Below, piece after piece: positions 4,977 to 44,109 of a stretch of DNA of 64,000 nt (position 1 is the stretch's first letter; each line of letters opens with the position of its first letter). Position numbers and translations under genes: made by a program. A model generated the notes under the pieces. It was not told the DNA's origin, did not search any database, and saw only the letters and a list, made by a program, of their open reading frames with translations. Origin of the DNA: a phage; NCBI GenBank assembly GCA_024682255.1, contig GCA_024682255.1_4716.1, one strand, 5' to 3'.

Positions 4977-5351
4977 TTAAACTCCTTGTCGGATCATCAC
5001 CAACCGGAGCATGTTGTATTCCAATGTAGCGCTTTCTAATTCGAATTCATATCGATACCAGAAATTCGGCTCTAATTGACCTACAACACATTTACGAACA
5101 TCTGTCTGCACCTTCCTCGACAACACCTGTAACAGTTGTGTTATCTCCGGCTTGAAGTAATACGCCAAACCTAACTGATCAGAATAAAACAGGCCACAAT
5201 CAAAGATGGCCTGTAAAATAACATATTCAACCATCAGGTGACGCGCATCGGGGTCAGGGAATGGCGAACGTAAAGCGAGGTCTAACACATCGACGATTGG
5301 GCCGACATAAATGGCGGCGCGGTACTCACGAATAACACTGATGTTATCCAT
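4977..5351 (-). CDS. hypothetical protein
   Basis: 124-aa ORF. Confidence 0.45.
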   Translation of the reverse strand: MDNISVIREYRAAIYVGPIVDVLDLALRSPFPDPDARHLMVEYVILQAIFDCGLFYSDQLGLAYYFKPEITQLLQVLSRKVQTDVRKCVVGQLEPNFWYRYEFELESATLEYNMLRLVMIRQGV

Positions 5352-28618: not shown

Positions 28619-29728
28619 TTATTTAGCGTCGTTAAAGTAAATATCAACAGCTCGTTCCGTTGCGTAGAGGAGACCAAGATTCACAGTCCCAACCACTTCC
28701 GGTGAACCGATGATACGGTTAGCGATACTGGTGCCACTGAAGATAGCATCAAGGGTGTGCCCGTCTTCGGTTTTGTTCACACCATGACCCACGGAAGAGA
28801 CAACGGATTTCGCTTGAGCTGCGAAGGTACCTTTATCACCCATCCCCGCACCAAGGTCGTAACGCATGAAAATACGGATGGCGATCTGGTTCTCGCCTAA
28901 CGGATTACCGTCTATTCTCACGTTACTGTTATTGATACGCCCCGTTGTTGCTTCGTTGAGTTTCAGTTCCTTAACGCGTTTAGCTCGTGCTTTATCCGCT
29001 TCACCGACGAGCGCTGCCATGGTTTCACTCATATCCTCAATCTGAGCGCGGTACAGTACATCGATCTGTACAACTTCACCATGAACGTCAGCACGTGGGT
29101 TATACTGACTCATACGACGTAATGCTTCAACGGCTTCCTGACTCTCATCACTCAGATCGGTTGCAATCGGTTCTTCCAGTGTTGCAAGGATCGTTCGAGG
29201 TTCAACGTGATCGCCGATTTTCACGAGACCGCGAATGTTGAGATGGGCGTCAACGATAAGCGTACGGCTCTTAATCGATGGTGTTACGAGACGATCGGCA
29301 AGATTGTCGAAGATATACGAACTGTCCTCGTGGGTCTCTGGAATATCCAGAATACCGACAAGAGACAGCACGCCTGCGCGCCAAACAACCTGACCTGGGT
29401 TCCACCAGTCGCGTTTAAAATAAAGACGATGGAAAACCACCACATCCTGATCCTTAACGCGATCCCCGACTTTATAATCGGTAATGAGATCGTGAGGATA
29501 ATACTTACCTGGTCCTTTCCCGATTATCGTACCGAGCTGGAAAACCTCTTCCCCTAACTCTGGATCGTCGTACTGTATCGTCAGCGCAGTTTTGGTGACC
29601 TTCTTGACAACACCATCGCCTTGGGCGGCAGCTGCGAAGAGTTTACCAACACGATGCGCGATAACAGTCTCACCGCCGGTGCGCCACGGTTGTACATCGT
29701 AACCTTCAGCAGCAATCATGCGGTTGTG
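28619..29728 (-). CDS. RNA polymerase beta-like subunit, exon 2 (track ORF 28619-29749 begins at an in-intron TTG that is not a real start)
   Basis: HNRMIAAEG matches beta ANRALMGAN; GDKGTFAAQAKSVVS matches beta GDKMAGRHGNKGVIS; frame open upstream into intron. Confidence 0.75.
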   Translation of the reverse strand, partial: HNRMIAAEGYDVQPWRTGGETVIAHRVGKLFAAAAQGDGVVKKVTKTALTIQYDDPELGEEVFQLGTIIGKGPGKYYPHDLITDYKVGDRVKDQDVVVFHRLYFKRDWWNPGQVVWRAGVLSLVGILDIPETHEDSSYIFDNLADRLVTPSIKSRTLIVDAHLNIRGLVKIGDHVEPRTILATLEEPIATDLSDESQEAVEALRRMSQYNPRADVHGEVVQIDVLYRAQIEDMSETMAALVGEADKARAKRVKELKLNEATTGRINNSNVRIDGNPLGENQIAIRIFMRYDLGAGMGDKGTFAAQAKSVVSSVGHGVNKTEDGHTLDAIFSGTSIANRIIGSPEVVGTVNLGLLYATERAVDIYFNDAK

Positions 29729-30264
29729 CTGTATACCTATAAATACCAATCTCTTGGGCGAATTTAGTTCTTATTCAACATAATCGTACTATTACCAGAA
29801 TAAGACTGAGATTAGATTGTTCAGATAAGGTCGTTGCTTGAAACGATCGTTTCAGCGCTCATCTTATCCCGGAGGCGACGATAGGCACATCACCTCCCGC
29901 TTGCGCTCTCACGCAAGAGCAGACTATATCACATCTCGTTTCAAACGGTGCTTCTTCAGCACCTCAACGAGAGTTCACTTCTTCCCAGCGCATCCAGCGC
30001 CATTCTCTTATCCAAGGAGAATGCCTCACTCGAGGGGTACAGGGGGATGAATCCCTTAGTCGTTGAACCTTTACCTTAGAACGCTTCACAGCGATCCTTA
30101 GGTACTTGGCTGCGGATTGTCCTTAAGCTATTATCTGTTTTTATACCATACCGTCTTTCTTTTCAGAATCCGTTTTGGTCGATAACAGCGATGGATGTCT
30201 TCGCAATTCAGTGAATCTCATCTACATGTCGCCACATAGACGGACCCTGCTATTAAAAGCGTTA
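29729..30264 (-). ncRNA. group I self-splicing intron (no ORF) in RNAP beta-like gene
   Basis: minus-strand P (AAUUGCGAAGA, 30198-30208), Q (AAUCCGCAGC, 30109-30118), R (GGUUCAACGACUAAGGGAUU, 30050-30069), S (GAUAUAGUC, 29922-29930) in canonical order; exon ends in U, intron ends in G. Confidence 0.8.
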
Positions 30265-33200
30265 ATCATCTCTATCAGCAGCAGGTACTGCAAGTGCTGA
30301 TGTACTCATTATTGACGAGCTACCATCCGTTTTCTCGTCGTAGGGTTTCGTTTCACCGTATACAGACACAATGTTTGCGTTAGGTGCAAGGTAAGCAGAG
30401 ATACCTACGTCCCCACTATCCTTCGTACCTTCGGATACAACACCAATGTCCGACTTGTCGTATTCACGATCGCGTGCGCGTCGAAGCGATGTCTTTGAAC
30501 GACCCCCAATACCGGTCATCGTCGCTTCTTCACCCTGCTTGATATCCAGCATCGGGTTGGTTTCATCGATCACGATGGAAGCACTGTCGTCGAGAATTTG
30601 GTTCCAGACACTTACCGGACTGATTGAGATTTTCTGGCGATTTCCTTGACTGCTGTTCTCATTCTGACGAATAGCGCCAACCAGATCCTTATACACCAAT
30701 TCAGCGAACTTATCGTACGTTTTAAAACGTTGGTAGTTCACATCGTTCGTGTTAGGAGCCCAATCATCCAGAAGCAATTCAACAGCACGCAGTAACAACA
30801 TGGCGAAATCGGTAGGTTCTCCCATGTTCTGCAGCAACATACGGCTTACCGGATCAACGAAAAGACGCTCCATGAGTTCAAGTTCGCGTAAATGACGAAC
30901 CTTAAGTCCGGCACCATCGACAACGTTAAAATAGATATCTCGATTGTCAAAAGCGCCGCGAGCGTAACCAATGTAGTTACGGTATTCGTTAAACCCACCC
31001 AGCAACAACGTCGTCATGCGGTCGTCTTTACTGAAGATCAAACTTTCGTCGTCAAAGCTCACCGCGAATTCATCGGGTGCTAGACCCATACGAGAACCGC
31101 GAGGTACCGTACGATAGTTTGCTTTAAGATGTTCTAATAACGGGGTGAGTCCGCCCAGATAACTTAGAACAACACCGACCGGAATACGTACACCCATGAA
31201 TTCAAGATCGGCAGCTTCGATCGGCATCTTGGCCGCATTGATGCCGAAGAAATCAGGGAACGTCCCTACAGGTGTTGGTGTTTGTCCTGACTGACAGATA
31301 TAGAGCTGATTGCGTTTATCGATTGCTAAGAATTCACCCAGCGTGTTACGCGCAAACGTCAGGAGCCCTTCGGCTAACTGTTCGTTGAACCGATCTTCCC
31401 CAATGAACTCCGGTAGCGTTTTTATATCGAGACGTATATCCCAATCAGCAAATTGGATTTGGGTATAATTGCGCGCAAGCACAGCGAAGTAGTACGGAAC
31501 TTTGACAGCTGGATCAAAGACGTTACCACGTTTTAACGTGGTTAAGGGTGAGGACTTATCGTAATACATCGCTGTAAGTTGACGTGTTAGCCAACGACCC
31601 GCATTATTAACGACGCGCTCTGAACGTTTAACAAACACCTTACCGTAGGCGGTACTCAATGCAACTTCGGATGACGATACCTTTCTAATAGGTTTATCAA
31701 CACGTTGTTTACGCATCCGGTATTTGATGCCGTTAACGACATAAATGCCGTCCTTACGAACCTTCGGCAACATCACCGGGAACGTGGTCGGGACACCGCC
31801 TACAGGAGCCAGTTTAATCGTGATGACTTGATAATCCCCCATCACGTCAACGACATCTTCAACTTTATATCCCGTGACAGGGTAACCTGCCTGCTGTACC
31901 GCAACAACGGCAGCTGCGATGTCCTTTTGCATTACGTGTTCGACGTAATGTTTATCCCACACCGCGAGCGTCGATTTACATAAGCTCTTGTCGACGATAA
32001 CATCCGCTTCCGGCATAACCTTTGCAGGCGCTAATTTCGCGGCTTTTGGTTTAACTTCAACATACTCGGCAAGTGTTAATCCAGAACCGTCGGGTGCTTC
32101 GATTTCGTGAATGGCATCGGCGTTACGCATCGCTGCTTTATATTGGACACCGCTTAACTGACCCGCATCGGCCAGATCGCTCGCGCGTACCAACACCGCA
32201 TCCGATAACGACTGAATATATTCACCATGTGTTTTTGGTAACGTTGTCGCATCAAAGACATCAACCTTTTCTTCTTCGGTATCGTCGGTAACGACTTCGA
32301 AGAGATCGTCGGTAATGTCCTGATCTTCATCGGGTTGGAAATCCGGCTGTACTTCTACCCCGGGTACTTCACGGACATCTTCGAACGAGCGTTCTACAAT
32401 GGCGTTCCACGCATCAGCGTCATCGTCTTCATCCGAACCACCGACCAACTCCGCTTCTAACTCATCGGGATCAAGAACGGTAGCCAGATCCTCACCGTTA
32501 GGAAGCACGACGTCGCGATCATCGTACTCCGCATCCGGGCTGTCTGCAAGAATATCCCGCTCTTGACGAAGAACCTGTTCCTCTTCTTGTTTCTGTTCTT
32601 CTTCATTCGCGCTCTGCGACCACAGACGTGTTACCGCCATCATCCAACGACGCTGGAAGGTTTCGAGTGTCGTTTTATCGAGTTCTTCCCCTTCCTTTAC
32701 AAGTCCGGTACGCCATTCTTCCAGCAAGCCGAGATTCAGCGTAAAGAAGTACACACCGTCTGTAAATACAACGTTAAGCTTATCCAGCGTGGCCCTGTCT
32801 AACGAAGCCATCGTGCTGTTCTCACGATCGGTTCCCAGCCAGCGGAAGAAGTCAAAGAACGACAGCTCCTCCGGTGTGGCGAAATTCATGAGGTTGTTAC
32901 GGGTCGGTGCCTGTTGCGTGGTACGCATCAACGAAATCTTCGGCAATGTTGACGGTATACGGAACAACAAAAAGTGTTGACGATCGCTTTGCTGTGCGAT
33001 TTCGTTGGCTTTCGACCAAATTGTTTTACGTACGTTGAACCATTCATCATACCAACGGGTGAGCGTTGGACGATAAATGTACATGTGGTTAAGATGCGCG
33101 TAGTTAGCAACGATCTGAGCGTTGATGTTTTTCTCTACCGTGCTTAGATCGGTAACCAAACGAAAACGACGATGTGATGCACGATAATCCAATTTCGCTC

Positions 33201-33471
33201 GTGGGAGTTGGAATCGTTGATCGCGTCGAGGTGCGCCCTGTTTGGTTGCGAGATCATCAGCAAACGAAATCCATAGTTGAGCACTTTCTTTACTCAGCAT
33301 GTATTCGTTTTCTGGAGGACCTATCAACGATGGATCCGTTGCGGTGTAATGATAGACAGCATAACGCGGCAGCTGCAATAGCTGCACTAAACGTAATCTC
33401 GGTGATAGTAGCTCTTGGTAGCGTCTGACACCGAACTGTCGGTAGTAATCAAGGTATTTAAGTTTTGCCAT
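30265..33471 (-). CDS. RNA polymerase beta-like subunit, exon 1 (includes ~450-500 aa non-RNAP N-terminal extension)
   Basis: MTGIGGRSK...SGDVGISAYLAPNAN matches beta ALGPGGLTRERAG...PEGPNIGLINSLSVYAQTN; C-terminal VPAADRDD matches beta IPFLEHDD. Confidence 0.8.
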
Positions 33472-33474
33472 GGG

Positions 33475-33654
33475 TTAGGCTCCACGAGGTCCCGTTAAGT
33501 TGCGTAATAGGAACGCAACTGTATCGTAACCAATATCAATGTTGAATTTATTTTTACCGCTTACCCAAAAAGCACGCTTCTTGTGCGAGTTGGTAATTTC
33601 GTCAATGGCTTCCATGGAATAAAGAACGTTAACCGAGACCGTATCACCGTCGAA
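33475..33654 (-). CDS. RNA polymerase beta-prime-like N-terminal subunit, exon 2 (59 codons, not in ORF track)
   Basis: translation FDGDTVSVNVLYSMEAIDE...NIDIGYDTVAFLLRNLT matches beta-prime [21 protein letters not shown]...VLGLYYMT; preceded by G (omega-G), stop 4 nt before beta-like start. Confidence 0.7.
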   Translation of the reverse strand, partial: FDGDTVSVNVLYSMEAIDEITNSHKKRAFWVSGKNKFNIDIGYDTVAFLLRNLTGPRGA

Positions 33655-35731
33655 CCTTTTCTTCGCCTCAGGTCGCTACGCTGAGACCGCCTGCGTGGAT
33701 ACGTACATCACAGGCTGCTTGCACTTTCATGCAAGAGGAGACTATATCAAACCGTCAGCTTCACCTTCTCGATCGTATCGAGAATGCGGTGCTGAAGTAT
33801 TCTTCAGCAGCACCTGCTACGGTAACCTACACTTCGAAGACGCTTGTCCTCTACAGGGTGGTAAATCCCTTAGTCGTTGAACCTGCGTTGTTTCACATTC
33901 TTGTTTGCAAGAATGCCGTATTGCTACGCAACAACCAGGCTGCTGATTGCCCATTATCACGCACCTTAGCACCGCTTACGCGGCTTTTCTTTCAGCCTAA
34001 GCCTCCGTGGGAGGTAATGTCTGATTAAATCAGACATCGCCAGGAGGTAGTGCATCTCAACTGTTGTTTCCGCCTTTCGGCACCTCATGGGTTGTTGAGC
34101 TTTAGGGGTTCCCAGCAATTCGTAGGTTTTTCAAGCACTCCCTTTCGGGAATACCGGACCATTACCCTTTAGCTAATTTATTTAAGTATCTGAAATCCCA
34201 CTTATCTTTGCGTCTATTTTCGCACTTAATAGCTTGGTTCTTTATTCTCCAAGCCACCTTTGTTTTAGGTAATTGGCTGTAATTGGCCGCTGACGCAGTA
34301 CCTAAAACAACGGTTACGGTACCATCGGGTTTAGTAATCTCTACAGCGCGATAATGCTTACGTAACACATTACGCCAATATTCACGGCGTTCTGGCTCAG
34401 CATACTCAAGCATATAACCGTTGGTATCGACCAGACCGTAACACTCGTTTAAACGAGAGGTAGCGGCCGGTCTACTAATACCGATTGCTTTAGCCGCGTC
34501 AACCACGGTTTTATACGGGGTTTCATTACCGTCTCTATCTACAACCACAATAAAATCTGGACGCGAATCGAGCAGCTGCTGTCTTCGTTCAAGGGCTTGT
34601 TGATGAAGCACCTTGTTAACATGTTCGAACCCGTAACCTTCTGGACCGCGCCACCCTGGATTGTTATTCGCTCGATAAAGTACCGTCGCTGATTTCACTC
34701 CAGTCTGACGTGACGCCTCGTTTGCACTATGAACAACCGTGGTAGAGCCGTCAGGGTGATATATCCGTATCTGGTTCATTATACCGGAACCAACAAAATT
34801 ACCATCAGCTGATTTAATATCCGGCCATGGTTGAGGATTATCCTTGAATTTAACCACCCAACGACTGTTAAACAATTTGACTTTCCGGGCATGTTTACCC
34901 ATTGTCGTATCCGTAACACCAGCTACAACAGAGGCTTGCGTGATACTCAGGTACTCAGTAACGGTATCGTCCCATGTATCCCAGAGCAGAACCGGTTTAT
35001 TGTCGTCGCGTAAACCGTGTTCGATAGCATGCAGGACATTACGACTTCTGGTTGCCCATTCAAGGTTGTCAAGAGAATAGTTCCACTTATCGGCATCAAG
35101 ATGGTTAACGTCCATCCTATCGACATCGGCTGGATACTCTCTCCACGCCAGCATTAGACAACGGTGTAATACCTTGCTACCGGCCTTCTGGCGACAATCA
35201 TGTTTCAAGCAGACAGTAACGTAACGGTTCGTTACGAAACACGGGCGACAAATGCTCCCGTCTTTTCTGTCCCTGATATCACCTACTTCGTTTATTACAT
35301 ATCTCGTCAGTCCTGGAATAACGCGATAGCCAGGATACTTAGCGATTTCATAAGCGGGCTCGAACCGATAGGATAAATTATCAACATCCCAGTTAGATTC
35401 GTCACCATCAACAAACATCGCTTTGACGTATTTCTGTGTTTCAATATCAACCAGGATGTTTTTGTGTGCGATACAAATCAATGCTGGGATATTGAATTCG
35501 CGACCGGCTAAGATAACCGTGTCGCCATCTCTCGGTACCTCGACGTGGGTATCGCGATACCGCAAGTTTCCATAGCCGTCTATTTCAATCCAGCTTAGAA
35601 ACGGAATAGATATAAATTCTTTTTCAGATACTCGCCATTTAAACATATAAACCCCTGTATAACCTTACTGTCACACTAAGAGGTTTATCTGTAAATTCTT
35701 ACAGAATGGCGTAATTTTACTAAAAGGGCCG
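33655..35731 (-). mobile_element. group I intron carrying an HNH homing endonuclease gene, inserted in beta-prime-like gene
   Basis: minus-strand P (AAUUGCUGGGAA, 34109-34120), Q (AAUCAGCAGCC, 33939-33948), R (33864-33883), S (33740-33748); HNH ORF upstream of core; 5-prime boundary by homology. Confidence 0.7.
34162..35646 (-). CDS. HNH homing endonuclease (HNH_3-type with NUMOD/IENR-like HTH modules), intron-encoded
   Basis: motif NHLDADKWNYSLDNLEWATRSRNVLHA; C-terminal AAKAIGISRPAATSRLN HTH-like repeats. Confidence 0.85.
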   Translation of the reverse strand: MFKWRVSEKEFISIPFLSWIEIDGYGNLRYRDTHVEVPRDGDTVILAGREFNIPALICIAHKNILVDIETQKYVKAMFVDGDESNWDVDNLSYRFEPAYEIAKYPGYRVIPGLTRYVINEVGDIRDRKDGSICRPCFVTNRYVTVCLKHDCRQKAGSKVLHRCLMLAWREYPADVDRMDVNHLDADKWNYSLDNLEWATRSRNVLHAIEHGLRDDNKPVLLWDTWDDTVTEYLSITQASVVAGVTDTTMGKHARKVKLFNSRWVVKFKDNPQPWPDIKSADGNFVGSGIMNQIRIYHPDGSTTVVHSANEASRQTGVKSATVLYRANNNPGWRGPEGYGFEHVNKVLHQQALERRQQLLDSRPDFIVVVDRDGNETPYKTVVDAAKAIGISRPAATSRLNECYGLVDTNGYMLEYAEPERREYWRNVLRKHYRAVEITKPDGTVTVVLGTASAANYSQLPKTKVAWRIKNQAIKCENRRKDKWDFRYLNKLAKG

Positions 35732-37240
35732 ATCACCGCCTAAACCGGCGAGGTATGGCGCAGGAACAATAGTCGTTTCTACGAACGAAGCATTAGGTAA
35801 CCAGTCGGGGTATTCCCATGCGATAAATCGTTCATCCGTTATTGGTTCCCAGTTACTATCCAGTTCGGTTTTCGGTTTTGCAGCGACGGTTGTACGCGCG
35901 TAACAGGTTAACGGGATAACGGATTGCATACCCGATACCGGATAACGTGTTACCATCGCAGCCAGGTTATTCCAGTACTTATATCCGGCGATATAGATAA
36001 GCTCGGTGTAAGTAATGGGGTGAACATCCGCACCAGGTTTATTCAACATCTCTGGGGGTAATTCACTCATACCACGGAATAACCGAAACGAATCGTTGTT
36101 CACATAGACGAGGCAAAGATAACGTCCATTGACCATGATAGGTTCATTACGCACACCAGGATCGCTTAAGGTGTTCAGTAAACGTTCGATACCGTCCCAG
36201 GTTGTAAAGTCATCGATGGTGTCTGGATCAAGCGTGACACGTTCACGTTCCATCGTTTCGGTATCGATAAGTTCAACTTCTGTAACATCACGGACAAATA
36301 TTTCCTGCAAAATCCCCGTACGTAACGCATGTTGCGTTACAGGGAGAGCAGCTTTACTCATCTGGTATAACCCTAACTGAACCGCGGTACAGGAAGGCTG
36401 GTTAGGCGACCCTAGTACCTCCGTTGTGGGGTTAATTGCCGAAATAACGTTACGGGTTGAGTTCCAAACGCGACGTGAACCGAACTTGCCTTGGAAGATC
36501 CCTTTCTTACCTTGGAACATATCCAACAACAAAGCGTAGATATCGTTAAATGTTCTCTGTAAGCTCCAGCGCTGGCCGTCGTAAACGGGATCAGAATAAT
36601 CTTTTAATCCATCAGGGACGGTGTTAGAAATTGCAAGGAAACGACGATACAACTCTGTGATTTCTTGCTCGCTTTCATACCCGCCTTCTTTTACTTCTAT
36701 TTCACGTAAGCCCGCAGGTAAAACCAGTAAGTGACGAGTCATCGCTTTGAACATGTTCTCTTCGACAACTTTAATTCGTAGCTCTCGTTGAGCTGAACCT
36801 GTTGAAACGAACTTGATATCCGCGACGTGTTGTGCAAAGAACCCATATCCTGTTTGTCCTGTTAACGCATCAGACGCAACGAAGTCGCGTTGTTCAGGAT
36901 CCCACCGAGCGTACGCCTTCCCCGACATGATATCGCCATAGAGGTGTTTTAGTCGAATGAGGCGATCGTAAATGACGGGATGCAGGATTTCAACCTTACA
37001 TTCAATCACCGCAAATCGACGGTCTCGATCTTCGCTACCCGCACTACCAAAGATGGTGTAAGAATAGAAACCATCATCGTGGAAATTACCGGTGCTTGGG
37101 TCACGGATGCTCATGCTCGTGATCTTGGGGAGAAAACGTAACTGCTGTTTATCGAGGTGTAAAATACTAATGTTAAACGGCTCTCTGACTTTAGCCATGG
37201 AGACACTCCTCTTTACCACCACCGGCTGCGGCGGTATCAT
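35732..37240 (-). CDS. RNA polymerase beta-prime-like N-terminal subunit, exon 1 (likely true start ATG at 37198; track frame continues to stop at 35720 inside intron)
   Basis: DGFYSYTIFGS ~ beta-prime DGLFCARIFGP; LLVLPAGLREIEVKEGG ~ [30 protein letters not shown] ~ NRAPTLHRLG; exon ends LAGLGGD before FDGD of exon 2. Confidence 0.75.
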
Positions 37241-37350: not shown

Positions 37351-40300
37351 GTGAAGTTACGCTTCAACATTATCAATGCCGAAGGTAAACTTCGTGCATC
37401 ACGTTCCAACGTAACATGGGAACGTATCGAACTGGAGGTATACATGGTAGATAAAACCCGTGTTGAGGGTGATGATAATTGGGATAACTGGGATGAAGAC
37501 TTCTCCCTGGATCTCGATTTCAACGAACCCAAAGACGATCGTAAACCGATAACACGCTTTGCGGTAGGCGCGGTTAAAGGTGCCGCTGAGGATCTTACTT
37601 CCTACGAAAGAATGAAGGAGATCGCCAGAAACGCGTTGCCTAAGGGCTACAGCGACGGTATGGATCTTATCGATTCCGCCGTCGGATCCACGAAGGAACT
37701 ATACAATGAAGCCGTTCGTGACGTTCTTCCTAAGGTCCAAAGCTCAAAACGGTTAGCCGCACAACTAACCAAGAAATACCGTGCGAGCATGCCCGATTTC
37801 TCAAAGAAAATTCTCGAGCAATGGGAGCGAGAAGCCAAGGAAGAAGACGAACGTAAACAAGCTGAAGAAACCCTTCGTCAACGCATGGCGAGCGCTGGGG
37901 ACGATGAGATCGCCCGCAAGGTTGCCGAGGCATTAGGTGAATCAGCAAACCAAAGCGCGGATCAGTTCGCTGAACAGCAAGCAAAAGAAAGTATCCGTGA
38001 CGATATCGCTGACAAACGGTACGCTGTAACCAACAAACAAATGAGTGCGATGCAAGAAGGCGTCGCCAAGATGGTTGGTTTCAACAATGAATTCGCTGCA
38101 CGCTACATGCGTAAAAGCCTGGAACTGAAATATCGTTCCTTAGCGATTCAACGTGCGAGTTTTGATCAGCATAAAAAGTTAGCCGAAGTCTATATCGGTT
38201 TATTACAAAACATCCAGAAGAATACGGCTTTACCTGATGCGGCTAAAGCGAAAATGTCGGAAGAATTCCGTCGTAGCGCATACCAACGCTTCTTTGGTAA
38301 TGCGTTAGATGCGATGGGTTCTTTCGAGAACCGTTTCTTTGCCGATGTTAAGAAGAACCTTGCCACCAACGCATTAGGTGCTTTAAAAGGCGTCGTATCT
38401 GGCGCAAACGATGCGTTATACGGTTTAAACGAAGCGCGTGACTCGATGTCCATGATGGACGGGATGGGGTCAGAAGGCGATATTAAGGAAATGCAAGGAA
38501 AGATGTTGGGTCAGTTCATTGGCTCAACTGTCGCCCCATGGATGGCTAATAAAGGCAGGATGGCGTTACGCGATTTAGCAAAACGTCACCCCAATGCTAA
38601 ATTCGCTAGCGCGTTAAAAGCCGTGGATCAAGGTGGTGAGGCTGCCGCTTACACGACGCGTAATCTCGGTAAACTGCTCCAGGAAGATATTCGTAAAAAC
38701 GAATTCAATCTTAGCGATCCGTTTTACAAGCAATTAATACGTGGCGCAGGGCGTTGGGCGTTCAACATGGACAGCGGACGTAACTTCCGTGTGATGAACG
38801 ACACCGCTGAAACACTGGCGGAGCAAACGTCTTTCGACGGTTTAACTTACCGCAGCATCAACGAGGTTATTCCTGGCTTTCTTGCACGCATTCTGAAAAG
38901 CAGTGAAGGTATCCGCACCGGAAACAGCGATCCTGACTACGAGGTCTATGACGGCATCAGCGGGCAATTCGTGTCTCAGCGCACGCGTGAACAAAGCGTC
39001 AACGACACGCTGTTTAACAAACGTTCGTTTGGTTATTACGCAAGCCGTTTCAATGAGGTCATCTCGGTCATCGATCCTGATAAGCAATTATCGGAAAAAG
39101 CCAGAAAGGCGCTGGCTAAGCAGTTGGCACGAGATAGCGACGCAAATATCGCATTCGACCCGGCCCGTTTTACGGATGAAAGCAACTTCGATCGTAGTAT
39201 TGACCGCGACGCTATTAAGGAACTTTCCACGTACTTTCGTGACCGTTACGGTATTCGTGATGATGTCAACGATAAGGGCGAACGTCATCAGGTCATTGGA
39301 AACCGCGGGCAATATTACACGGAACGTAACCGAGCTGATCTTCGCTACGGAAATCTGAAATCGTTACAGCCGGATATCCAGCGTAACCTTAACCTACTGA
39401 AACGTACTGGCGACGTCCAATATCTGGAACGTATCGGTATTGTAACGAGAAATAGCGACGGAAGTTACTCGGTTAATCACGATCGGTATTTCTCTGAAAT
39501 CGATCGGTACATCGACCGACCGGAGTACGCTGAACGTAGTGATGTTAATACGCGATTAACCGCTCAGGAAACAAGAGCGCTGGCGCTAGGTTATCGTGAT
39601 GCAAAACCATCAGCTGGTGACGTCCAAAATGCGGGTCTGCCGAACATCGATCGTAAGGCTGTTGGCGCAGTAACCGTTGATGAAAACATCGGCTACGATA
39701 AATGGTGGAACGATACAGGTGTTATCACCACATCGCTTGAAGAACAGAATCGAGCATGGCAAGAGCTTTATCTCGAAGCGTTGTCTGAAGCATCCGAACA
39801 ACGTGTTGAAATGCTTACGTTACTGAAAGCCATTTCTGAGAAAGACTGGTCTAATAACGTTTCGCTGGATGGTGTAGATGTACCTGAAGGTGCGGCACCC
39901 ATTTCATTTATCGATCGTGCCAAACAAAAACTCGGTACACGCAACCTCTTTAAAGGTGGTCGTAATCTTCTCTGGAAAGGAATTAAAAATACCGCACGTT
40001 TGGGTGTTAAAGGCGCGCGCTGGGGTGCAGAACGCACGTTGGGTAGTTTGGTAAATTCTGGCCGACGCATTATCGATTTCAACCGCTTCGTGTTCGGCGC
40101 ATTATCCAAGGTTGATCAGGTTCCGTTTGACATTTACGTTAAAGGGGAATCCCAACCACGCATATTGGCGGCCAAACTTCGTCAGGGGTTATACTTCGAC
40201 GAAGCGACAGGAAAAGCCGTAAAACGGATGAAGGATATCAAAGGCCCACTCGTTGATGTGGATGGAAATATCGTAATCAGCAACGAGGATATCGAGAAAG

Positions 40301-43300
40301 GGTTGGTCACTCGCGCTGGTCGAGCCTTTGAGAATTCAGGACTTAAGGCGTGGGCACGTGAAGGTCTTAATGGAATCACGACGGTATTAAGTCTCCCACG
40401 GATGTTAAAACGCGGTGCGGTCGAGATCTACAAACAGCTCGACAAGACGCCCGACGTTTACGTCAAGGGAGAATCAACGCCTCGTCTGTTGTCCATGGTG
40501 TTAGCAGCGGGTGGGTATTTCCGTCGGTCGGATGGACAAGTCATCAAAAATCTTGAAGATATCGATGGTGATGTTGTTGATGCACAAGGTAACGTCGTAC
40601 TTACGCTTGCCGACATGCAGAAAGGACTTGTCGATAAATACGGTAAAGCGATTCGTCGCTTAAAAGAAAAGCTCATCAACTTCGGTGTAAAAGCTTTTAC
40701 GTTACCGTTAACGCTGCTACGTAAGACAAAGGACATCCTTAAAGCCCTTCCAGGTAAAACCGTTAACGGTCTACGACGGATGGGATTAAACTTCCAATCA
40801 CCTGACGCATTACTGGTGGGAACAACGTCGAGCATGGTAGATCGCCTCGATGCTATTTACCAGCTTCTTGACCAGCGTATGCCGGGAGGTGATAAGGATT
40901 ACCGCGATTGGAATGGTGATGGTGTTCGAGAAGGATCGTTGGAAGACCTGAAACGTAAGCGTGAAGCCAAGGAAAACGGTAAGGATGAATCAGGCAAAGA
41001 TTCCAATAAAGGAGAAGAAAAGGAGAAGAAACGAGGGTTACTCGGAAGCCTTTTCGATATGCTCGGCGATACCGCATTAGGCAAACGACTCATGGCGAGT
41101 CCGCTTGGAAAAATTCTGGGTGGTCTTGGGGCGGTGTTAAGCGGCGGAGCATCGTTAACCGGATTGTTAGGCAAGGGTCTCATTAGTGGAACCGGCGCGC
41201 TGGTCAAGGGAGGACTAAGTGCGGCAGGATGGTTAGGACGTGGTGCGTTAATGGCGGGCGGAGCCGCATTGAACGCTGTTGGTGGTTTATCGGGATTAGG
41301 CGCATTCCTTATATCACCTGTTGGGCTTGCTATTGCAGGTGGTGCATTGGCTGCTTATGCAGGATGGAAGATCTATCAGCATTTCGCCGAGAAGCCTGAC
41401 CCGATGCAGAAGCTCCGTCTTATTGCATACGGTGCAAAAGGGGACGATAAAGACTTCAATAAGAAGCTGCTTGCGACAGAAACATACCTCACCGATCACG
41501 TGGTTATGACCGGGGATACCATCGGATTCGATCCGAAAGCGGATTCTGAAAAGATTCTCGAAATCTGGGAATTGTCCCTGGAAGACTCCGACCGAATGAA
41601 CGAATGGAAACGCTGGTATCTGCATCGTTTTATTCCTGTTTTCGCTCGTGCGTACAAACTCTGGAAAGAGCATATGCCGGACGAGAAGAAATACATGGAA
41701 ATGGATAAATATCCGAACGGTGAGAACAAAGTGAAATGGTCGGAAGCGTTTATCTGGCCTTCCGATAGTCCTGACGGTCCGTATTACGTCGAAGCTAACC
41801 CGTTGGGTTCTTCTGGTGCGACGCGTTATATTGCTGGTCAAGACGTCAAAACCTTGATGCTGAAACAACTCGAAGCCATCAAGAAAGAGTACCAGAATCA
41901 GATCAAACAATACACTCATGATGAGGCTATTGCTGATTGGTCACGGATGTCTGACACACAACGTAAATCCGTTGCGCCTAACGCATTACGTGGTCAGAAA
42001 GCGTCGTTACGTTTTAACGATAAACGTTACAACAGCGCTGGCGCTAAAGGACGACAGAAGCTTGACGCGACCGCGGTTATTGAAAGCGTAGACCGTCGTG
42101 GTAGAAAATGGGTTGCCGGTGGATACATCGATGAACTCACCAGTCTCCGTGTTCGTGCGTACGGTATTAAGGTTCCGTTGTTAAGTCAGATAAAAGTGCT
42201 GATGGAACTCGAAGACGCTGTAGAACCCGGCGTTGTCGCTGAAGGTAAAGGTGTTAAATACGGTGGCGATCTTGTTGCGCTCTACAAGAAATTCGCGACG
42301 AAATTCGGAAGAGACGTTAACAGCAAGCGGGATCAGGATATCTGGTTCGCTTGGATGAATAACCGTTTCCTACCCGTCTTTTTAACCTATTACCAACAAG
42401 TTAGCGAAATGGGCGGTCAAGGGCTTCTGTCCGACGTGGTACAGAACCTGAAAGACAGCCAACGTTGGGAAATCGGTGAAGCACTTGTCGCAACGCAATA
42501 CCGTGATGAGAAAGGTACACTGCAGCCTGTATGGTCCTGGAATAGTTGTGGTTTCTCCGGTACTGAAGCTAACACCACCAGCAGTTCAACAAAGAGCCAG
42601 CTCGATCTGTTAAAAGAATATGCGGATAAAGAGAAGGTTCGTGAGAAGAACGCGGAAGCATCGCAAGAGGATGCCGATAAATTATCGAAGATCCAAGAGC
42701 TGATGATGAAGCAGGCTGGGTACGAGAAGAAAGACGGTGTCTGGCAGAAGAAATCTCGCATTACCGGTGGGATGAGTAACTCCGAAGCGAATTACAACCC
42801 CAATAGGAATAAGGTCGGTGAAAGCAGCTTTACGGCTTCGGCTACGTCCAATGCGGGATTGGGATCAACCGGCGATCTTACTGGATTGCCTAACATGGGC
42901 TTACAGAAACCTGCAATGGGACCAGGTCCTGAAGCTGGACGTCGTGCGCTTGTTAAATCCGCTGTAAAACGCGGCATTACCGATCCGATGGAAATGGCCA
43001 TGTTCCTTGCGAACATCGAACATGAATCGGGGAACTACACTCACGTACGTGAGGGGAACTATAAGACACCGGAGCGTCTTAAACAGGTCTTCCCTTACAA
43101 ATTCCGTGATGTGCAGGATGCCGCACAGACGATCAGCATGGGGCCGGAGGCGGTATTCGAACGTGTGTACGGTAATCGTAAAGATCTCGGAAACACACAG
43201 AAAGGAGACGGGGCGAAGTATTTAGGACGTGGCTTCATTCAGGTTACCGGTAAAGCTAACTACGCTCGTCTGTCTAAGACCTTGAATAAGGATCTTGTCA

Positions 43301-44109
43301 GCGATCCGACCTACCTGGAAACGCCGGAAGGTGCGGCGGAAGGTAGTGTCGCGTGGTGGCTCAACCGAGGTAATGTATTACGCGATCCCGCAAAACGGGG
43401 TGATGTGCGCCAAGTTCGTTATCTGGTTAACGGTGGTTTTAACGGATTACGTGATGTTGAACAGCGTTCAGCTTATTGGATTCAGGCGGCTAAGAATGGC
43501 ACCCTGAAGAAAATGATGGACGAGTTATCGGGGTCAACATCGGACGATCAAGTTGAAGGACCGACCACTGCCGAACAGGTGAAGAACGAAGCAGCCCAAG
43601 AGGCAAACGGAACACCTGCTGTAAGCAACGATCCGCAAGCCCCAGTATCTTCTACTACCCCTGAAGCTAAACCGTCTGCGGCTGCCGGTACTGCTCCAGC
43701 ACCTGGAGAAGCATCACCAACGCCTGGAAGTTTCGAAACAGCAAAAGCCGCGGCAGGACAACCGACATCAACACCAGCACCTAGCGATTTGCCGTCAAAC
43801 CCGGGTGCAAATCGAGGGATATCGGTTCCGAATACGCCTGCACAGGTTGCGCAGTCTGCGACACAAACATCGGTTGCGAGCGAGAACTTCTACGGCAGCG
43901 CAGGTGAAATTCTCCGACAGCAGCTGACCACACAGCAGAACATCGAGAAGAACACCGGTAGAACGAATGAACTTATTTCGGAATTAATCCAAGCCGTTAA
44001 GGGTTCTTCTATCGGTAAGGGTTCTGCAGGTCCTTCTCAACAACAGACGATGTCGCTACCTAATCGTCCGCAAGGAATCTCTCCAACACGGACAAGGTAC
44101 GCACAGTAG
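37351..44109 (+). CDS. giant virion-associated protein with C-terminal GH19-lysozyme-like domain (tape-measure/ejection-type; likely true start ATG at 37444)
   Basis: 2252-aa ORF; C-terminal FLANIEHESGNY...GRGFIQVTGKANY...YLVNGGFNGL; Gly-rich hydrophobic segment; internal ~110-aa tandem repeat; GGAGGT SD before 37444. Confidence 0.75.
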   Translation: MKLRFNIINAEGKLRASRSNVTWERIELEVYMVDKTRVEGDDNWDNWDEDFSLDLDFNEPKDDRKPITRFAVGAVKGAAEDLTSYERMKEIARNALPKGYSDGMDLIDSAVGSTKELYNEAVRDVLPKVQSSKRLAAQLTKKYRASMPDFSKKILEQWEREAKEEDERKQAEETLRQRMASAGDDEIARKVAEALGESANQSADQFAEQQAKESIRDDIADKRYAVTNKQMSAMQEGVAKMVGFNNEFAARYMRKSLELKYRSLAIQRASFDQHKKLAEVYIGLLQNIQKNTALPDAAKAKMSEEFRRSAYQRFFGNALDAMGSFENRFFADVKKNLATNALGALKGVVSGANDALYGLNEARDSMSMMDGMGSEGDIKEMQGKMLGQFIGSTVAPWMANKGRMALRDLAKRHPNAKFASALKAVDQGGEAAAYTTRNLGKLLQEDIRKNEFNLSDPFYKQLIRGAGRWAFNMDSGRNFRVMNDTAETLAEQTSFDGLTYRSINEVIPGFLARILKSSEGIRTGNSDPDYEVYDGISGQFVSQRTREQSVNDTLFNKRSFGYYASRFNEVISVIDPDKQLSEKARKALAKQLARDSDANIAFDPARFTDESNFDRSIDRDAIKELSTYFRDRYGIRDDVNDKGERHQVIGNRGQYYTERNRADLRYGNLKSLQPDIQRNLNLLKRTGDVQYLERIGIVTRNSDGSYSVNHDRYFSEIDRYIDRPEYAERSDVNTRLTAQETRALALGYRDAKPSAGDVQNAGLPNIDRKAVGAVTVDENIGYDKWWNDTGVITTSLEEQNRAWQELYLEALSEASEQRVEMLTLLKAISEKDWSNNVSLDGVDVPEGAAPISFIDRAKQKLGTRNLFKGGRNLLWKGIKNTARLGVKGARWGAERTLGSLVNSGRRIIDFNRFVFGALSKVDQVPFDIYVKGESQPRILAAKLRQGLYFDEATGKAVKRMKDIKGPLVDVDGNIVISNEDIEKGLVTRAGRAFENSGLKAWAREGLNGITTVLSLPRMLKRGAVEIYKQLDKTPDVYVKGESTPRLLSMVLAAGGYFRRSDGQVIKNLEDIDGDVVDAQGNVVLTLADMQKGLVDKYGKAIRRLKEKLINFGVKAFTLPLTLLRKTKDILKALPGKTVNGLRRMGLNFQSPDALLVGTTSSMVDRLDAIYQLLDQRMPGGDKDYRDWNGDGVREGSLEDLKRKREAKENGKDESGKDSNKGEEKEKKRGLLGSLFDMLGDTALGKRLMASPLGKILGGLGAVLSGGASLTGLLGKGLISGTGALVKGGLSAAGWLGRGALMAGGAALNAVGGLSGLGAFLISPVGLAIAGGALAAYAGWKIYQHFAEKPDPMQKLRLIAYGAKGDDKDFNKKLLATETYLTDHVVMTGDTIGFDPKADSEKILEIWELSLEDSDRMNEWKRWYLHRFIPVFARAYKLWKEHMPDEKKYMEMDKYPNGENKVKWSEAFIWPSDSPDGPYYVEANPLGSSGATRYIAGQDVKTLMLKQLEAIKKEYQNQIKQYTHDEAIADWSRMSDTQRKSVAPNALRGQKASLRFNDKRYNSAGAKGRQKLDATAVIESVDRRGRKWVAGGYIDELTSLRVRAYGIKVPLLSQIKVLMELEDAVEPGVVAEGKGVKYGGDLVALYKKFATKFGRDVNSKRDQDIWFAWMNNRFLPVFLTYYQQVSEMGGQGLLSDVVQNLKDSQRWEIGEALVATQYRDEKGTLQPVWSWNSCGFSGTEANTTSSSTKSQLDLLKEYADKEKVREKNAEASQEDADKLSKIQELMMKQAGYEKKDGVWQKKSRITGGMSNSEANYNPNRNKVGESSFTASATSNAGLGSTGDLTGLPNMGLQKPAMGPGPEAGRRALVKSAVKRGITDPMEMAMFLANIEHESGNYTHVREGNYKTPERLKQVFPYKFRDVQDAAQTISMGPEAVFERVYGNRKDLGNTQKGDGAKYLGRGFIQVTGKANYARLSKTLNKDLVSDPTYLETPEGAAEGSVAWWLNRGNVLRDPAKRGDVRQVRYLVNGGFNGLRDVEQRSAYWIQAAKNGTLKKMMDELSGSTSDDQVEGPTTAEQVKNEAAQEANGTPAVSNDPQAPVSSTTPEAKPSAAAGTAPAPGEASPTPGSFETAKAAAGQPTSTPAPSDLPSNPGANRGISVPNTPAQVAQSATQTSVASENFYGSAGEILRQQLTTQQNIEKNTGRTNELISELIQAVKGSSIGKGSAGPSQQQTMSLPNRPQGISPTRTRYAQ

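Follow-up and report, generated by a model that had tools for sequence, protein, structure and literature searches.

The locus analysed here raises the question of how a phage obtains an intact catalytic polymerase subunit from a gene that breaks off after the first aspartate codon of its DFDGD motif. Our analysis of the window (the whole 64-kb stretch of DNA) points to RNA splicing: the virion RNA polymerase (vRNAP) beta-prime gene is very probably interrupted, between the first Asp and the Phe codons of DFDGD, by a mobile subgroup IA intron that carries an HNH gene in its P1 loop and that would both splice and home. The element is already known in kind, being found at the same spot in phiKZ, Goslar and other giant phages, and no new mechanism is involved. 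The source of the window is a nucleus-forming jumbo phage of E. coli, similar to Goslar.

The interrupted polymerase gene

The gene and its interruption comprise three parts (a slash marks the insertion point or splice junction in all motifs below):

37240..35732, minus strand: exon 1 of the gene for the vRNAP beta-prime N-terminal subunit; 503 codons from the ATG at 37240, with the 3' end encoding ...YLAGLGGD
35731..33655, minus strand: group I intron of 2077 nt, with C(+1) as its first base (35731) and G as its last (33655); boundaries given by the intron-less allele L002, with an Rfam match inside
33654..33475, minus strand: exon 2, FDGDTVSVNVLYSMEAIDEI...GPRGA; 59 codons plus TAA, phrog_2986 positions 485-538

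The last codons of exon 1 are GGC GGT GAT, ending at 35732, and its ORF (37240..35720, minus strand) runs on through three intron codons (CGG CCC TTT) to a TAG at 35722..35720. The Goslar start is annotated 14 codons further in, at the equivalent of the ATG at 37198, and the exon 1 product is 99.8% identical to Goslar gp205. Exon 2 opens with TTC GAC GGT GAT ACG (FDGDTVSVNV...) at 33654. Joining the exons gives the ligated sequence GGCGGTGAT/TTCGACGGTGAT, a predicted protein of 562 aa in which GGDFDGD is restored, and a predicted tryptic fragment, ...AGLGGDFDGDTVSVNVLYSMEAIDEITNSHK, that spans the junction. FDGD occurs only once across the six frames of the 64-kb window, and no ATG, GTG or TTG lies between the motif and the in-frame TAG 8 codons upstream of it, the first start being Met 33615, past the motif. 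FDGD is therefore not translatable on its own, and DFDGD would arise solely through the joined exons, as originally predicted.

The exon junction is placed exactly by three independent sequence comparisons. The PHROG profile phrog_2986 aligns its positions 3-484 with exon 1 residues 17-503 (E 3e-161) and its positions 485-538 with exon 2 residues 1-54; since positions 484 and 485 adjoin, the profile match is unbroken across D/F. By tblastn, the spliced protein aligned as one piece in 286 of 310 phage records. Finally, an IMG/VR contig from a close relative without the intron (L002) reads ...GGT GGG GAC/TTT GAT GGT GAT... and encodes the identical protein YLAGLGGDFDGDTVSVNV. Its intron-less site is GGTGGGGAC/TTTGATGGTGAT, and position 33654 of the window aligns with its position 5295, so that this allele fixes the intron boundaries; they agree to the base, and in strand, with those first proposed. 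Profile continuity, one-piece alignments and the uninterrupted L002 gene together argue that the split-gene pattern is not due to chance.

A Pfam search with the polymerase exons gave no match except a chance Microcin match on exon 2, so PHROG and PDB searches were needed to identify the product. The PDB sequence search returned N-terminal subunits of the beta-prime type, those of AR9 (7S00/7S01) and the plastid and cyanobacterial beta-prime/gamma proteins; around the junction, the product lines up with D[FY]DGD in AR9 and in plastid beta-prime. Erwinia phage RAY has a homologue named vRNAP beta' subunit 1, and synteny is shared with phiKZ gp181/180/179/178 and with PhiPA3. These matches, with phrog_2986, bear out the predicted RNAP beta-prime-like gene; judged by sequence, it encodes the N-terminal beta-prime subunit of the virion RNAP and is orthologous to phiKZ gp180 (Chimalliviridae).

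Anatomy of the intron and its endonuclease gene

Within and at the edge of the intron, the following elements were assigned:

35734..35731, minus strand: 5' strand of P1, made up of exon residues G(-3), A(-2) and U(-1) and intron residue C(+1), pairing with GGUC at 34160..34157
35728..35720, minus strand: 5' strand of the P1-extension helix, CCCUUUUAG, complementary to CUAAAGGG
35646..34162, minus strand: HNH homing-endonuclease ORF (494 aa), located in the P1 terminal loop; Pfam HNH_3, phrog_59
34180..33718, minus strand: Rfam RF00028 match; P2-P9 catalytic core, including P7.1/P7.2 between P7 and P3'
34172..34165, minus strand: 3' strand of the P1-extension helix, CUAAAGGG, overlapping the final HNH codons shortly before the TAA
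34160..34157, minus strand: internal guide sequence GGUC, with G34159 as the partner of U(-1); the guide precedes the P4 anchor by 37-39 nt in 8 of 8 copies
34154..34135, minus strand: P2 hairpin, GUAUUCCC GAAA GGGAGUGC, from the Rfam alignment and the fold
33717..33655, minus strand: 3'-terminal P9.x hairpins and terminal G, from sequence and fold

A covariance-model search had been proposed as a check on the group I core, and it recovered the full RF00028 model (1-253) with 57.9 bits (E 4.2e-12 in the 64-kb window), where the gathering score is 50; large peripheral insertions keep the score modestly over threshold. Between ACGACUA and GUAGGUU lie P7.1 and P7.2 (AGGG..CCCU and GAGGAC..GUCUUC), which appear in both the MFE and the centroid folds; by the presence of these helices, the architecture is that of subgroup IA. 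P1 and its extension, P2-P9 and P7.1/P7.2 all form in a ViennaRNA fold of an ORF-less copy (z = -3.6), whose centroid shows the exon-guide P1 pairing. The catalytic core is invariant in the six Goslar-type copies, which differ by hairpin-tip indels and scattered point substitutions in peripheral helices, so a covariation test of the core is uninformative. The intron ends in AAAAGG, and a terminal G is present in every copy examined. The U and G predicted at the ends of exon 1 and the intron are thus U35732 and G33655.

The guide sequence was only implicit in the original prediction; it lies after the ORF instead of beside the 5' splice site. This splice site lies between 35732 and 35731, at a U35732:G34159 wobble flanked by A-U and G-C pairs. 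The exon part of P1 has 3 bp in the window and 4 in some other copies, and P10 has at most 1-2 bp. With the guide past the 3' end of the ORF, 1.57 kb separates the P1 strands, and the ORF occupies the P1 loop. Across eight copies, the pair between position +1 and the first guide residue (N' in N'GUC) covaries as C:G, A:U or U:A, and the U:G wobble is present in all eight. The P1-extension helix that closes off the ORF occurs in three unrelated yet complementary versions, namely that of the window, GGAAAGGCUA with UAGCUUUUCU in Goslar, and CCUUGAAAAA with UUUUUCAAGG at the same position in ORF-less copies. The in-frame TAG at which translation of exon 1 would stop in unspliced RNA lies in the 5' strand of this helix.

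Other guide candidates were dropped in favour of the post-ORF GGUC because of the covariation in Goslar and the ORF-less copies. Close to the 5' splice site, GUUAU (intron nt 69) was the best but formed just 5 pairs, three of them wobble, and longer complements at intron nt 512, 1906 and 1797 fall within the ORF or P3'/P8/P6. The 'P1' aligned by Rfam at 34180..34155 is spurious, as it leaves out the splice site and many of its positions do not pair.

The HNH ORF claimed for the insert is matched by Pfam HNH_3 (E 1.6e-8, residues 176-204) and phrog_59 (E 2e-24). Its product shares 29% identity with phiKZ gp179 (E 1e-26) and 26% with PhiPA3 gp210 (E 1e-13), a proven nicking enzyme whose H82R mutant is inactive (PMC11620839). 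The predicted catalytic His182 (codon 35103..35101) aligns with His82 of gp210. The C-terminal half contains NUMOD1-like helix-turn-helix repeats, with weak matches to NUMOD1 and I-HmuI (E 0.28 for the latter). By analogy with gp210, the HNH protein should nick alleles that lack the intron, close to where it inserts.

Relatives and distribution of the intron

The locus had been taken for a new instance, not a new class, and this stands. The precedent named for it, phiKZ gp71-73, is not the nearest one, and a literature search for an intron at gp71-73 found nothing. The closest case is phiKZ gp180/gp179 (NC_004629; group I core of 92 bits), whose introns are mentioned in PMC11512511, PMC10914365 and PMC12676376. 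In this orthologous gene, the insertion point is identical (..PLGAD/FDGDTVSF), with GAU/U at the 5' site and G/UUC at the 3' site. The layout is also the same, with exon 1, an HNH ORF in the P1 loop, the guide AGUC just 5' of P2, an IA-type core (GGGG..CCCC and GGGUC..GACUC in the place of P7.1/P7.2) and an exon 2 of 60 codons followed by the gp178 homologue. However, phiKZ infects another host genus, its exon proteins are ~38% identical to those of the window, and the cores are similar at the family level only. The phiKZ intron has 1443 nt and a 357-aa HNH protein, compared with 2077 nt and 494 aa in the window, and the peripheral extensions of P5, P6 and P8 are far bigger in the Goslar-type intron.

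The sister phage Goslar (NC_048170) carries the same element in gp205/gp206, with ~90% core identity and the same splice sites and guide sequence. Its HNH gene is ~88% identical to that of the window, with unalignable stretches, and neither the 33-nt P5 hairpin insert nor the second intron in gp207 is present in Goslar. Its record holds an 'Intron_gpI' ncRNA feature at the homologous place, with the exons unjoined and exon 2 unannotated, and the Goslar genome paper makes no mention of introns or RNA polymerase. Goslar, a propagated phage, has the same interrupted gene.

The window contains a second, ORF-less intron (30264..29759) in the next gene downstream, at the site of the PhiPA3 gp210 intron. 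The latter, in the vRNAP gene gp211/209 of a nucleus-forming phage, is likewise a group I intron with an HNH nicking enzyme (Birkholz et al. 2024, PMC11620839). It also interrupts catalytic-region Asp codons, and its HNH protein is homologous, with the catalytic His aligned, but its site follows a conserved DD in the adjacent gene, the gp178 homologue, and the PhiPA3 homologue of gp180 (gp212) is uninterrupted.

More distant parallels come from the introns of T4 td/nrdB/sunY and the SPO1 DNA polymerase gene, which are of subgroup IA, interrupt active-site codons of essential nucleic-acid-metabolism genes and contain homing endonuclease ORFs. The structural prototype of nicking enzymes of the HNH plus NUMOD type is I-HmuI (PDB 1U3E). 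The T4 and SPO1 ORFs lie in the P6a, P9.1 and P8 loops, not in a P1 loop with the guide downstream of the ORF; their host genes differ from that of the window, and the sequence similarity to I-HmuI is marginal.

A group I intron at exactly the D/FDGD site is also present in OMKO1, Xanthomonas phage RTH11 and Vibrio phages, besides phiKZ. The RF00028 gathering score was passed in each homologous copy: OMKO1 (88.4 bits), phiKZ (92.2), RTH11 (68.9), Yong MS31 (69.9), 2 TSL-2019 (51.7) and the Goslar-like genome L004 (64.9). The D/FDGD site appears to be interrupted or truncated in roughly 40 of 252 records. In IMG/VR, an exact-pattern search for the P7 region matched only Goslar and one relative. 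The intron of Vibrio phage vB_pir03 at NAD/FDGD was set aside since it lies in the other beta-prime family (phrog_2987), which is not orthologous.

Among nine Goslar-like genomes, one (L002) is intron-less and eight have the intron, with or without the HNH ORF. ORF-less copies, which keep the core, occur in L004, L046 and L047 as well as in OMKO1. The second intron, one gene downstream, shows the same range of states among these near-identical genomes. The same three states are seen in phiKZ-like phages: KTN4 and ~35 others are intron-less, ~10 carry gp179, and OMKO1 and fMGyn-Pae01 are ORF-less. In L047, the exons are only 86-87% identical, compared with 94-97% for the intron core, and a tract of ~200 nt downstream of the intron is nearly identical, resembling the product of co-conversion. 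Synonymous differences are clustered at the insertion site, and position -1 is T in all six fully recovered intron-containing alleles and C in the intron-less allele. The occurrence of all intron states in the nine genomes, together with the co-conversion-like tract, indicates recent mobility.

Predicted splicing and homing

Splicing of the window's intron is inferred from this anatomy and from established group I chemistry. In the pre-mRNA, exon GAU and C(+1) would pair with the guide GGUC 1.57 kb downstream, just past the ORF, the covarying helix that closes off the ORF bringing the P1 strands together. An external guanosine would then attack after U35732 in the U:G wobble, and the freed exon 1 would attack after the terminal G33655. 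The ligated mRNA (GGU GAU/UUC GAC) would encode the 562-aa subunit with DFDGD intact, whereas unspliced RNA would give a product ending 3 codons into the intron, without the metal site. In an intron-less allele, a nick by the HNH protein would lead to recombinational repair that copies the intron in. Such homing, with later loss of the ORF, would account for the patchy intron-less, intron-plus-HNH and ORF-less states in near-identical phages.

The ribozyme could splice in vivo without being autonomous, and need help from an RNA chaperone of host or phage origin or from the HNH protein as a maturase. Many group I introns are protein-dependent in vivo, and here the exon-guide pairing is very short (3 bp), P10 is weak and the P1 strands are far apart in the ORF-containing form. 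Moreover, a long-read transcriptome of phiKZ gave no evidence of splicing of its same-site intron under the conditions used (PMC10914365). Nevertheless, ORF-less copies persist in an essential gene in L004, L046, L047 and OMKO1, so the HNH protein is not required, and the core matches the group I model in full. In the Azoarcus intron, 3 bp between exon and guide suffice. We therefore consider dependence on a helper improbable.

It is far less probable that the intron is a decayed, non-splicing relic, leaving a truncated dead subunit and a polymerase function supplied otherwise. The Rfam score is only 8 bits over threshold, but the core is identical in six copies despite one host genome being 13% diverged in the flanking exons, and the differences are confined to the hairpin tips and peripheral positions described above. 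Both exons are in frame, the exon 2 protein is identical to that of the intron-less allele, Goslar is viable with the same arrangement, and the window has no other FDGD. The phage also has a second polymerase, nvRNAP, but this is a separate enzyme built from subunits of its own (PMC7598289). The chance is very small that a free-standing HNH gene separates independently translated fragments that assemble as proteins, even though jumbo-phage RNAP subunits are naturally separate polypeptides (PMC7598289) and exon 1 is a stand-alone CDS in database records, because exon 2 lacks a start codon ahead of FDGD, a full group I core lies exactly between the ORF and exon 2 and is kept in ORF-less versions, and 286 homologues are single polypeptides across the junction point.

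A spliced gene bears on annotation. Records of Goslar, phiKZ and several other jumbo phages give the catalytic beta-prime subunit of the vRNAP as a truncated protein lacking DFDGD and leave exon 2 unannotated; a correct product needs a joined CDS. The near-identical Goslar-like genomes also form a natural series in an E. coli host for homing, co-conversion and interference of the PhiPA3/phiKZ type, and they bear on how group I introns fold and splice when transcription, in the phage nucleus, is uncoupled from translation. Because the nucleus separates the two processes, splicing might act as a checkpoint before the packaged polymerase is made.

PhiPA3 gp210 acts against phiKZ in interference competition (PMC11620839). 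By analogy, and tentatively, the two adjacent vRNAP introns could conceivably mediate interference among co-infecting E. coli jumbo phages, with each endonuclease crippling the essential polymerase gene of intron-less rivals once inside their phage nucleus and the clustered synonymous changes, including C at -1, being marks of escape or immunity. The window combines a first intron with an HNH ORF and a second without one, and sister genomes hold other combinations.

The interrupted polymerase gene and its proposed splice junction

The window, 93-95% DNA-identical to Escherichia phage Goslar, comes from a relative of this nucleus-forming jumbo phage. Its gene order, namely a large tail-associated lysin on the opposite strand, the split gene, and then a 1448-aa polymerase subunit, matches phiKZ gp181/gp180/gp178 and PhiPA3 gp213/212/211-209. 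PDB sequence matches of the split gene are beta-prime N-terminal subunits of AR9 (7S00/7S01) and plastid and cyanobacterial beta-prime/gamma subunits, whose D[FY]DGD aligns with the junction region. Based on this gene order, these matches, and this alignment, we identify the product as the predicted N-terminal beta-prime subunit of the virion RNA polymerase; in Erwinia phage RAY the homologous protein is called vRNAP beta' subunit 1. The 2252-aa ORF upstream of the polymerase genes (37351..44109, plus strand, opposite to them) corresponds to phiKZ gp181 and to a protein that Goslar lists as "tail fiber protein" and that has a lysozyme-like domain, so synteny is conserved.

Features of the intron locus.
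37240..35732, minus strand: exon 1, ending GGT TTA GGC GGT GAT, then CGG CCC TTT TAG
35731..33655, minus strand: intron 1, 2077 nt
35646..34162, minus strand: HNH ORF, 494 aa
after the HNH ORF, minus strand: structured RNA of ~500 nt, ending GAAGAAAAGG at 33655
from 33654, minus strand: exon 2, starting TTC GAC GGT GAT ACG GTC, encoding FDGDTVSVNVLYSMEAIDEI
33477..33475, minus strand: exon 2 stop codon TAA

The original prediction of a group I intron with an HNH gene one codon before FDGD named elements that were all recovered at their positions by sequence inspection and by Rfam, HNH_3, and phrog_59 matches. Searching the whole window with the Rfam group I model returned a minus-strand core at 34180..33718 (57.9 bits, E 4.2e-12; threshold 50 bits). 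The proposed splice junction was supported in three ways. In phrog_2986, the PHROG family of the polymerase subunit (profile of 539 positions), residues 17-503 of exon 1 cover positions 3-484 and residues 1-54 of exon 2 continue with 485-538, without gap or duplication at D|F. When the exons are joined conceptually, the resulting 562-aa protein matches 286 of 310 phage records in one continuous alignment spanning at least 80% of its length. Finally, the insert is absent from L002, a 237.5-kb IMG/VR contig 96% identical to the window, which reads GGA CTT GGT GGG GAC|TTT GAT GGT GAT ACG and codes for the same YLAGLGGDFDGDTVSVNV; its position 5295 is the alignment partner of window 33654. The predicted junction at D|F is thus exact. 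Across all six frames, the window contains FDGD a single time; an in-frame TAG lies eight codons 5' of it with no in-frame start codon between the two, so that it would be expressible only through exon joining. The polymerase gene that follows starts, with ATG, in the frame of exon 2, and one codon (CCC) separates this ATG from the exon 2 TAA (33477..33471, minus strand).

RNA anatomy and predicted splicing

The window intron sequence offered no convincing candidate for a guide sequence beside the 5' splice site. A guide was located by comparing eight intron copies: the six complete ones from Goslar-like phages (window, L044, Goslar, L004, L046, and L047) and two from phiKZ-type phages (phiKZ and OMKO1). 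In all eight, exon GAU and the intron base at +1 form a helix with N'-G-U-C, with U(-1) opposite G; the guide sits 37-39 nt 5' of the P4 anchor, after the ORF where there is one. The +1 pair covaries, being C:G in the window, L044, and Goslar, A:U in L004, L046, and L047, and U:A in phiKZ and OMKO1. Adjoining this pair is an ORF-closing helix (CCCUUU(U)AG/CUAAAGGG in the window, GGAAAGGCUA/UAGCUUUUCU in Goslar), whose counterpart in ORF-less copies is a simple hairpin (CCUUGAAAAA/UUUUUCAAGG); its position next to P1 puts the HNH gene in the terminal loop of the predicted P1.

Free-energy folding of the 462-nt ORF-less copy without prior pairing assumptions gave a z-score of -3.6 and a centroid with P1 (GAUA/UGUC), the extension helix, P2, P3, P4-P6, P7.1, P7.2, P8, and P9. 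The predicted P7.1/P7.2 between P7 and P3' assign intron 1 to subgroup IA; the phiKZ intron also has P7.1/P7.2 hairpins, but of different sequence. The six Goslar-type copies do not differ in the catalytic core; their variation consists of indels where the P5, P6, and P8 extensions end in a loop tip and of scattered point substitutions in P9.x and other peripheral helices. The window (34042..34010, minus strand), L044, and L046 share a 33-nt insert in the P5-extension hairpin that Goslar, L004, and L047 lack. The insert is a short perfect palindrome, AUGUCUGAUUUAAUCAGACAU, with the 7-nt direct repeat UACCUCC on either side, and it resembles a very small insertion that duplicated its target.

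Sequence comparison shows the intron boundaries, a group I core with no part missing, a P1 geometry backed by covariation, an intact HNH motif, and the presence/absence polymorphism, and from these data we infer splicing in the window phage. By established group I chemistry, guanosine would attack after U35732 and the exons would be ligated after G33655, giving an mRNA reading GGU GAU UUC GAC. One long-read transcriptome of phiKZ reported predicted introns without evidence of splicing (PMC10914365), in contrast to the viability of Goslar and phiKZ despite the interrupted gene.

The HNH endonuclease and probable intron mobility

The 494-aa ORF carries an HNH_3 domain (E 1.6e-8) with an intact HNH motif, belongs to phrog_59 (HNH endonuclease), and shares 29% identity with phiKZ gp179 (E 1e-26) and 26% with PhiPA3 gp210 (E 1e-13). 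In the gp210 alignment, its His182 falls on His82, a residue required for nicking by gp210 (PMC11620839). The C-terminal half of the 494-aa protein contains weak NUMOD1/I-HmuI-like helix-turn-helix repeats. In phiKZ, orf179 can be deleted (PMC12676376). At places corresponding to 35704..35647 (minus strand), before the HNH ORF, Goslar carries two hairpins of different sequence, and phiKZ has one strong hairpin directly 5' of the gp179 start codon; this region may serve in translational or transcriptional control of the endonuclease gene.

State of the D|FDGD site in nine Goslar-like genomes.
No intron: L002
Intron with HNH: window, L044, Goslar, L045, L048
ORF-less intron, 462-546 nt: L004, L046, L047

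Position -1 is T and exon 2 opens with TTC in each of the six intron-containing alleles recovered in full. The intron-less allele has C and TTT there, and it differs from them at 4-8 positions in the 30 nt 5' of the site, compared with ~1-3 per 30 nt elsewhere. In the more distant Goslar-like phage L047 (JACXXQ010000003.1), flanking genes are 86-87% and the intron core 94-97% identical to the window; the first 200 nt 3' of the intron, covering exon 2, have only 0-3 differences per 50 nt, and divergence then returns to 5-10 per 50 nt. This L047 pattern is that expected of horizontal acquisition with co-conversion, and the 200-nt tract is likely the footprint of a recent intron transfer between diverged phages. 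Judging from gp210 homology and the intron distribution, the HNH protein would nick intron-less alleles and so initiate homing.

Introns at the same site and in the next gene

An intron in a beta-prime gene is not new, as the original prediction anticipated, but a known, fairly widespread kind of element; the phiKZ orthologue is interrupted at the identical point. There, PHIKZ180 ends PLGAD (GCG GAT|TAATTG), followed by gp179 (HNH), a group I core (92.2 bits), and exon 2 (AACG|TTC GAC GGG GAC, encoding FDGDTVSFNAVYS). The precedent originally invoked, phiKZ gp71-73, is a different gene, and our literature search for an intron there found no paper; introns in gp180/gp179 are mentioned (PMC11512511, PMC12676376). 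Among phiKZ-like records, ~35 are intron-less, ~10 have gp179, and in two (OMKO1 and fMGyn-Pae01) the intron is 481 nt long and lacks an ORF. Orthologues in Xanthomonas phage RTH11 and in the Vibrio phages Yong MS31 and 2 TSL-2019 are interrupted after GAT by group I introns above Rfam's threshold; exon 2, beginning FDGD, was found in RTH11 and Yong MS31. Vibrio phage vB_pir03 has a related intron at NAD|FDGD, but in a different beta-prime family (phrog_2987), with C instead of U at -1 and an HNH ORF that looks fragmented. Several jumbo-phage genera have group I introns at the D|FDGD codon boundary of the beta-prime gene.

Most records with the interrupted gene present exon 1 as the whole protein and omit exon 2. 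The Goslar GenBank record has an "Intron_gpI" feature at the homologous place, with the exons unjoined and exon 2 unannotated; the Goslar genome paper makes no mention of the intron. Intron 1 is of value for correct annotation, and its alleles form a naturally occurring series in a jumbo-phage system of E. coli.

A second, ORF-less group I intron (30264..29759, minus strand; 506 nt, Rfam 56.3 bits) lies in the homologue of phiKZ gp178/Goslar gp207, between exons 33471..30265 and 29758..28619 (minus strand). Exon 1 ends ADRDD (GAT GAT|TAACGC), exon 2 begins PKRLVF, and the spliced product would have 1448 aa, equal to the uninterrupted Goslar gp207. The site, after the conserved DD, is that of the PhiPA3 gp210 intron. 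This intron is missing from Goslar and L047; in L002 it carries a 403-aa HNH protein 36% identical to gp210. It shares the guide GGUC and the exon end GAU with intron 1.
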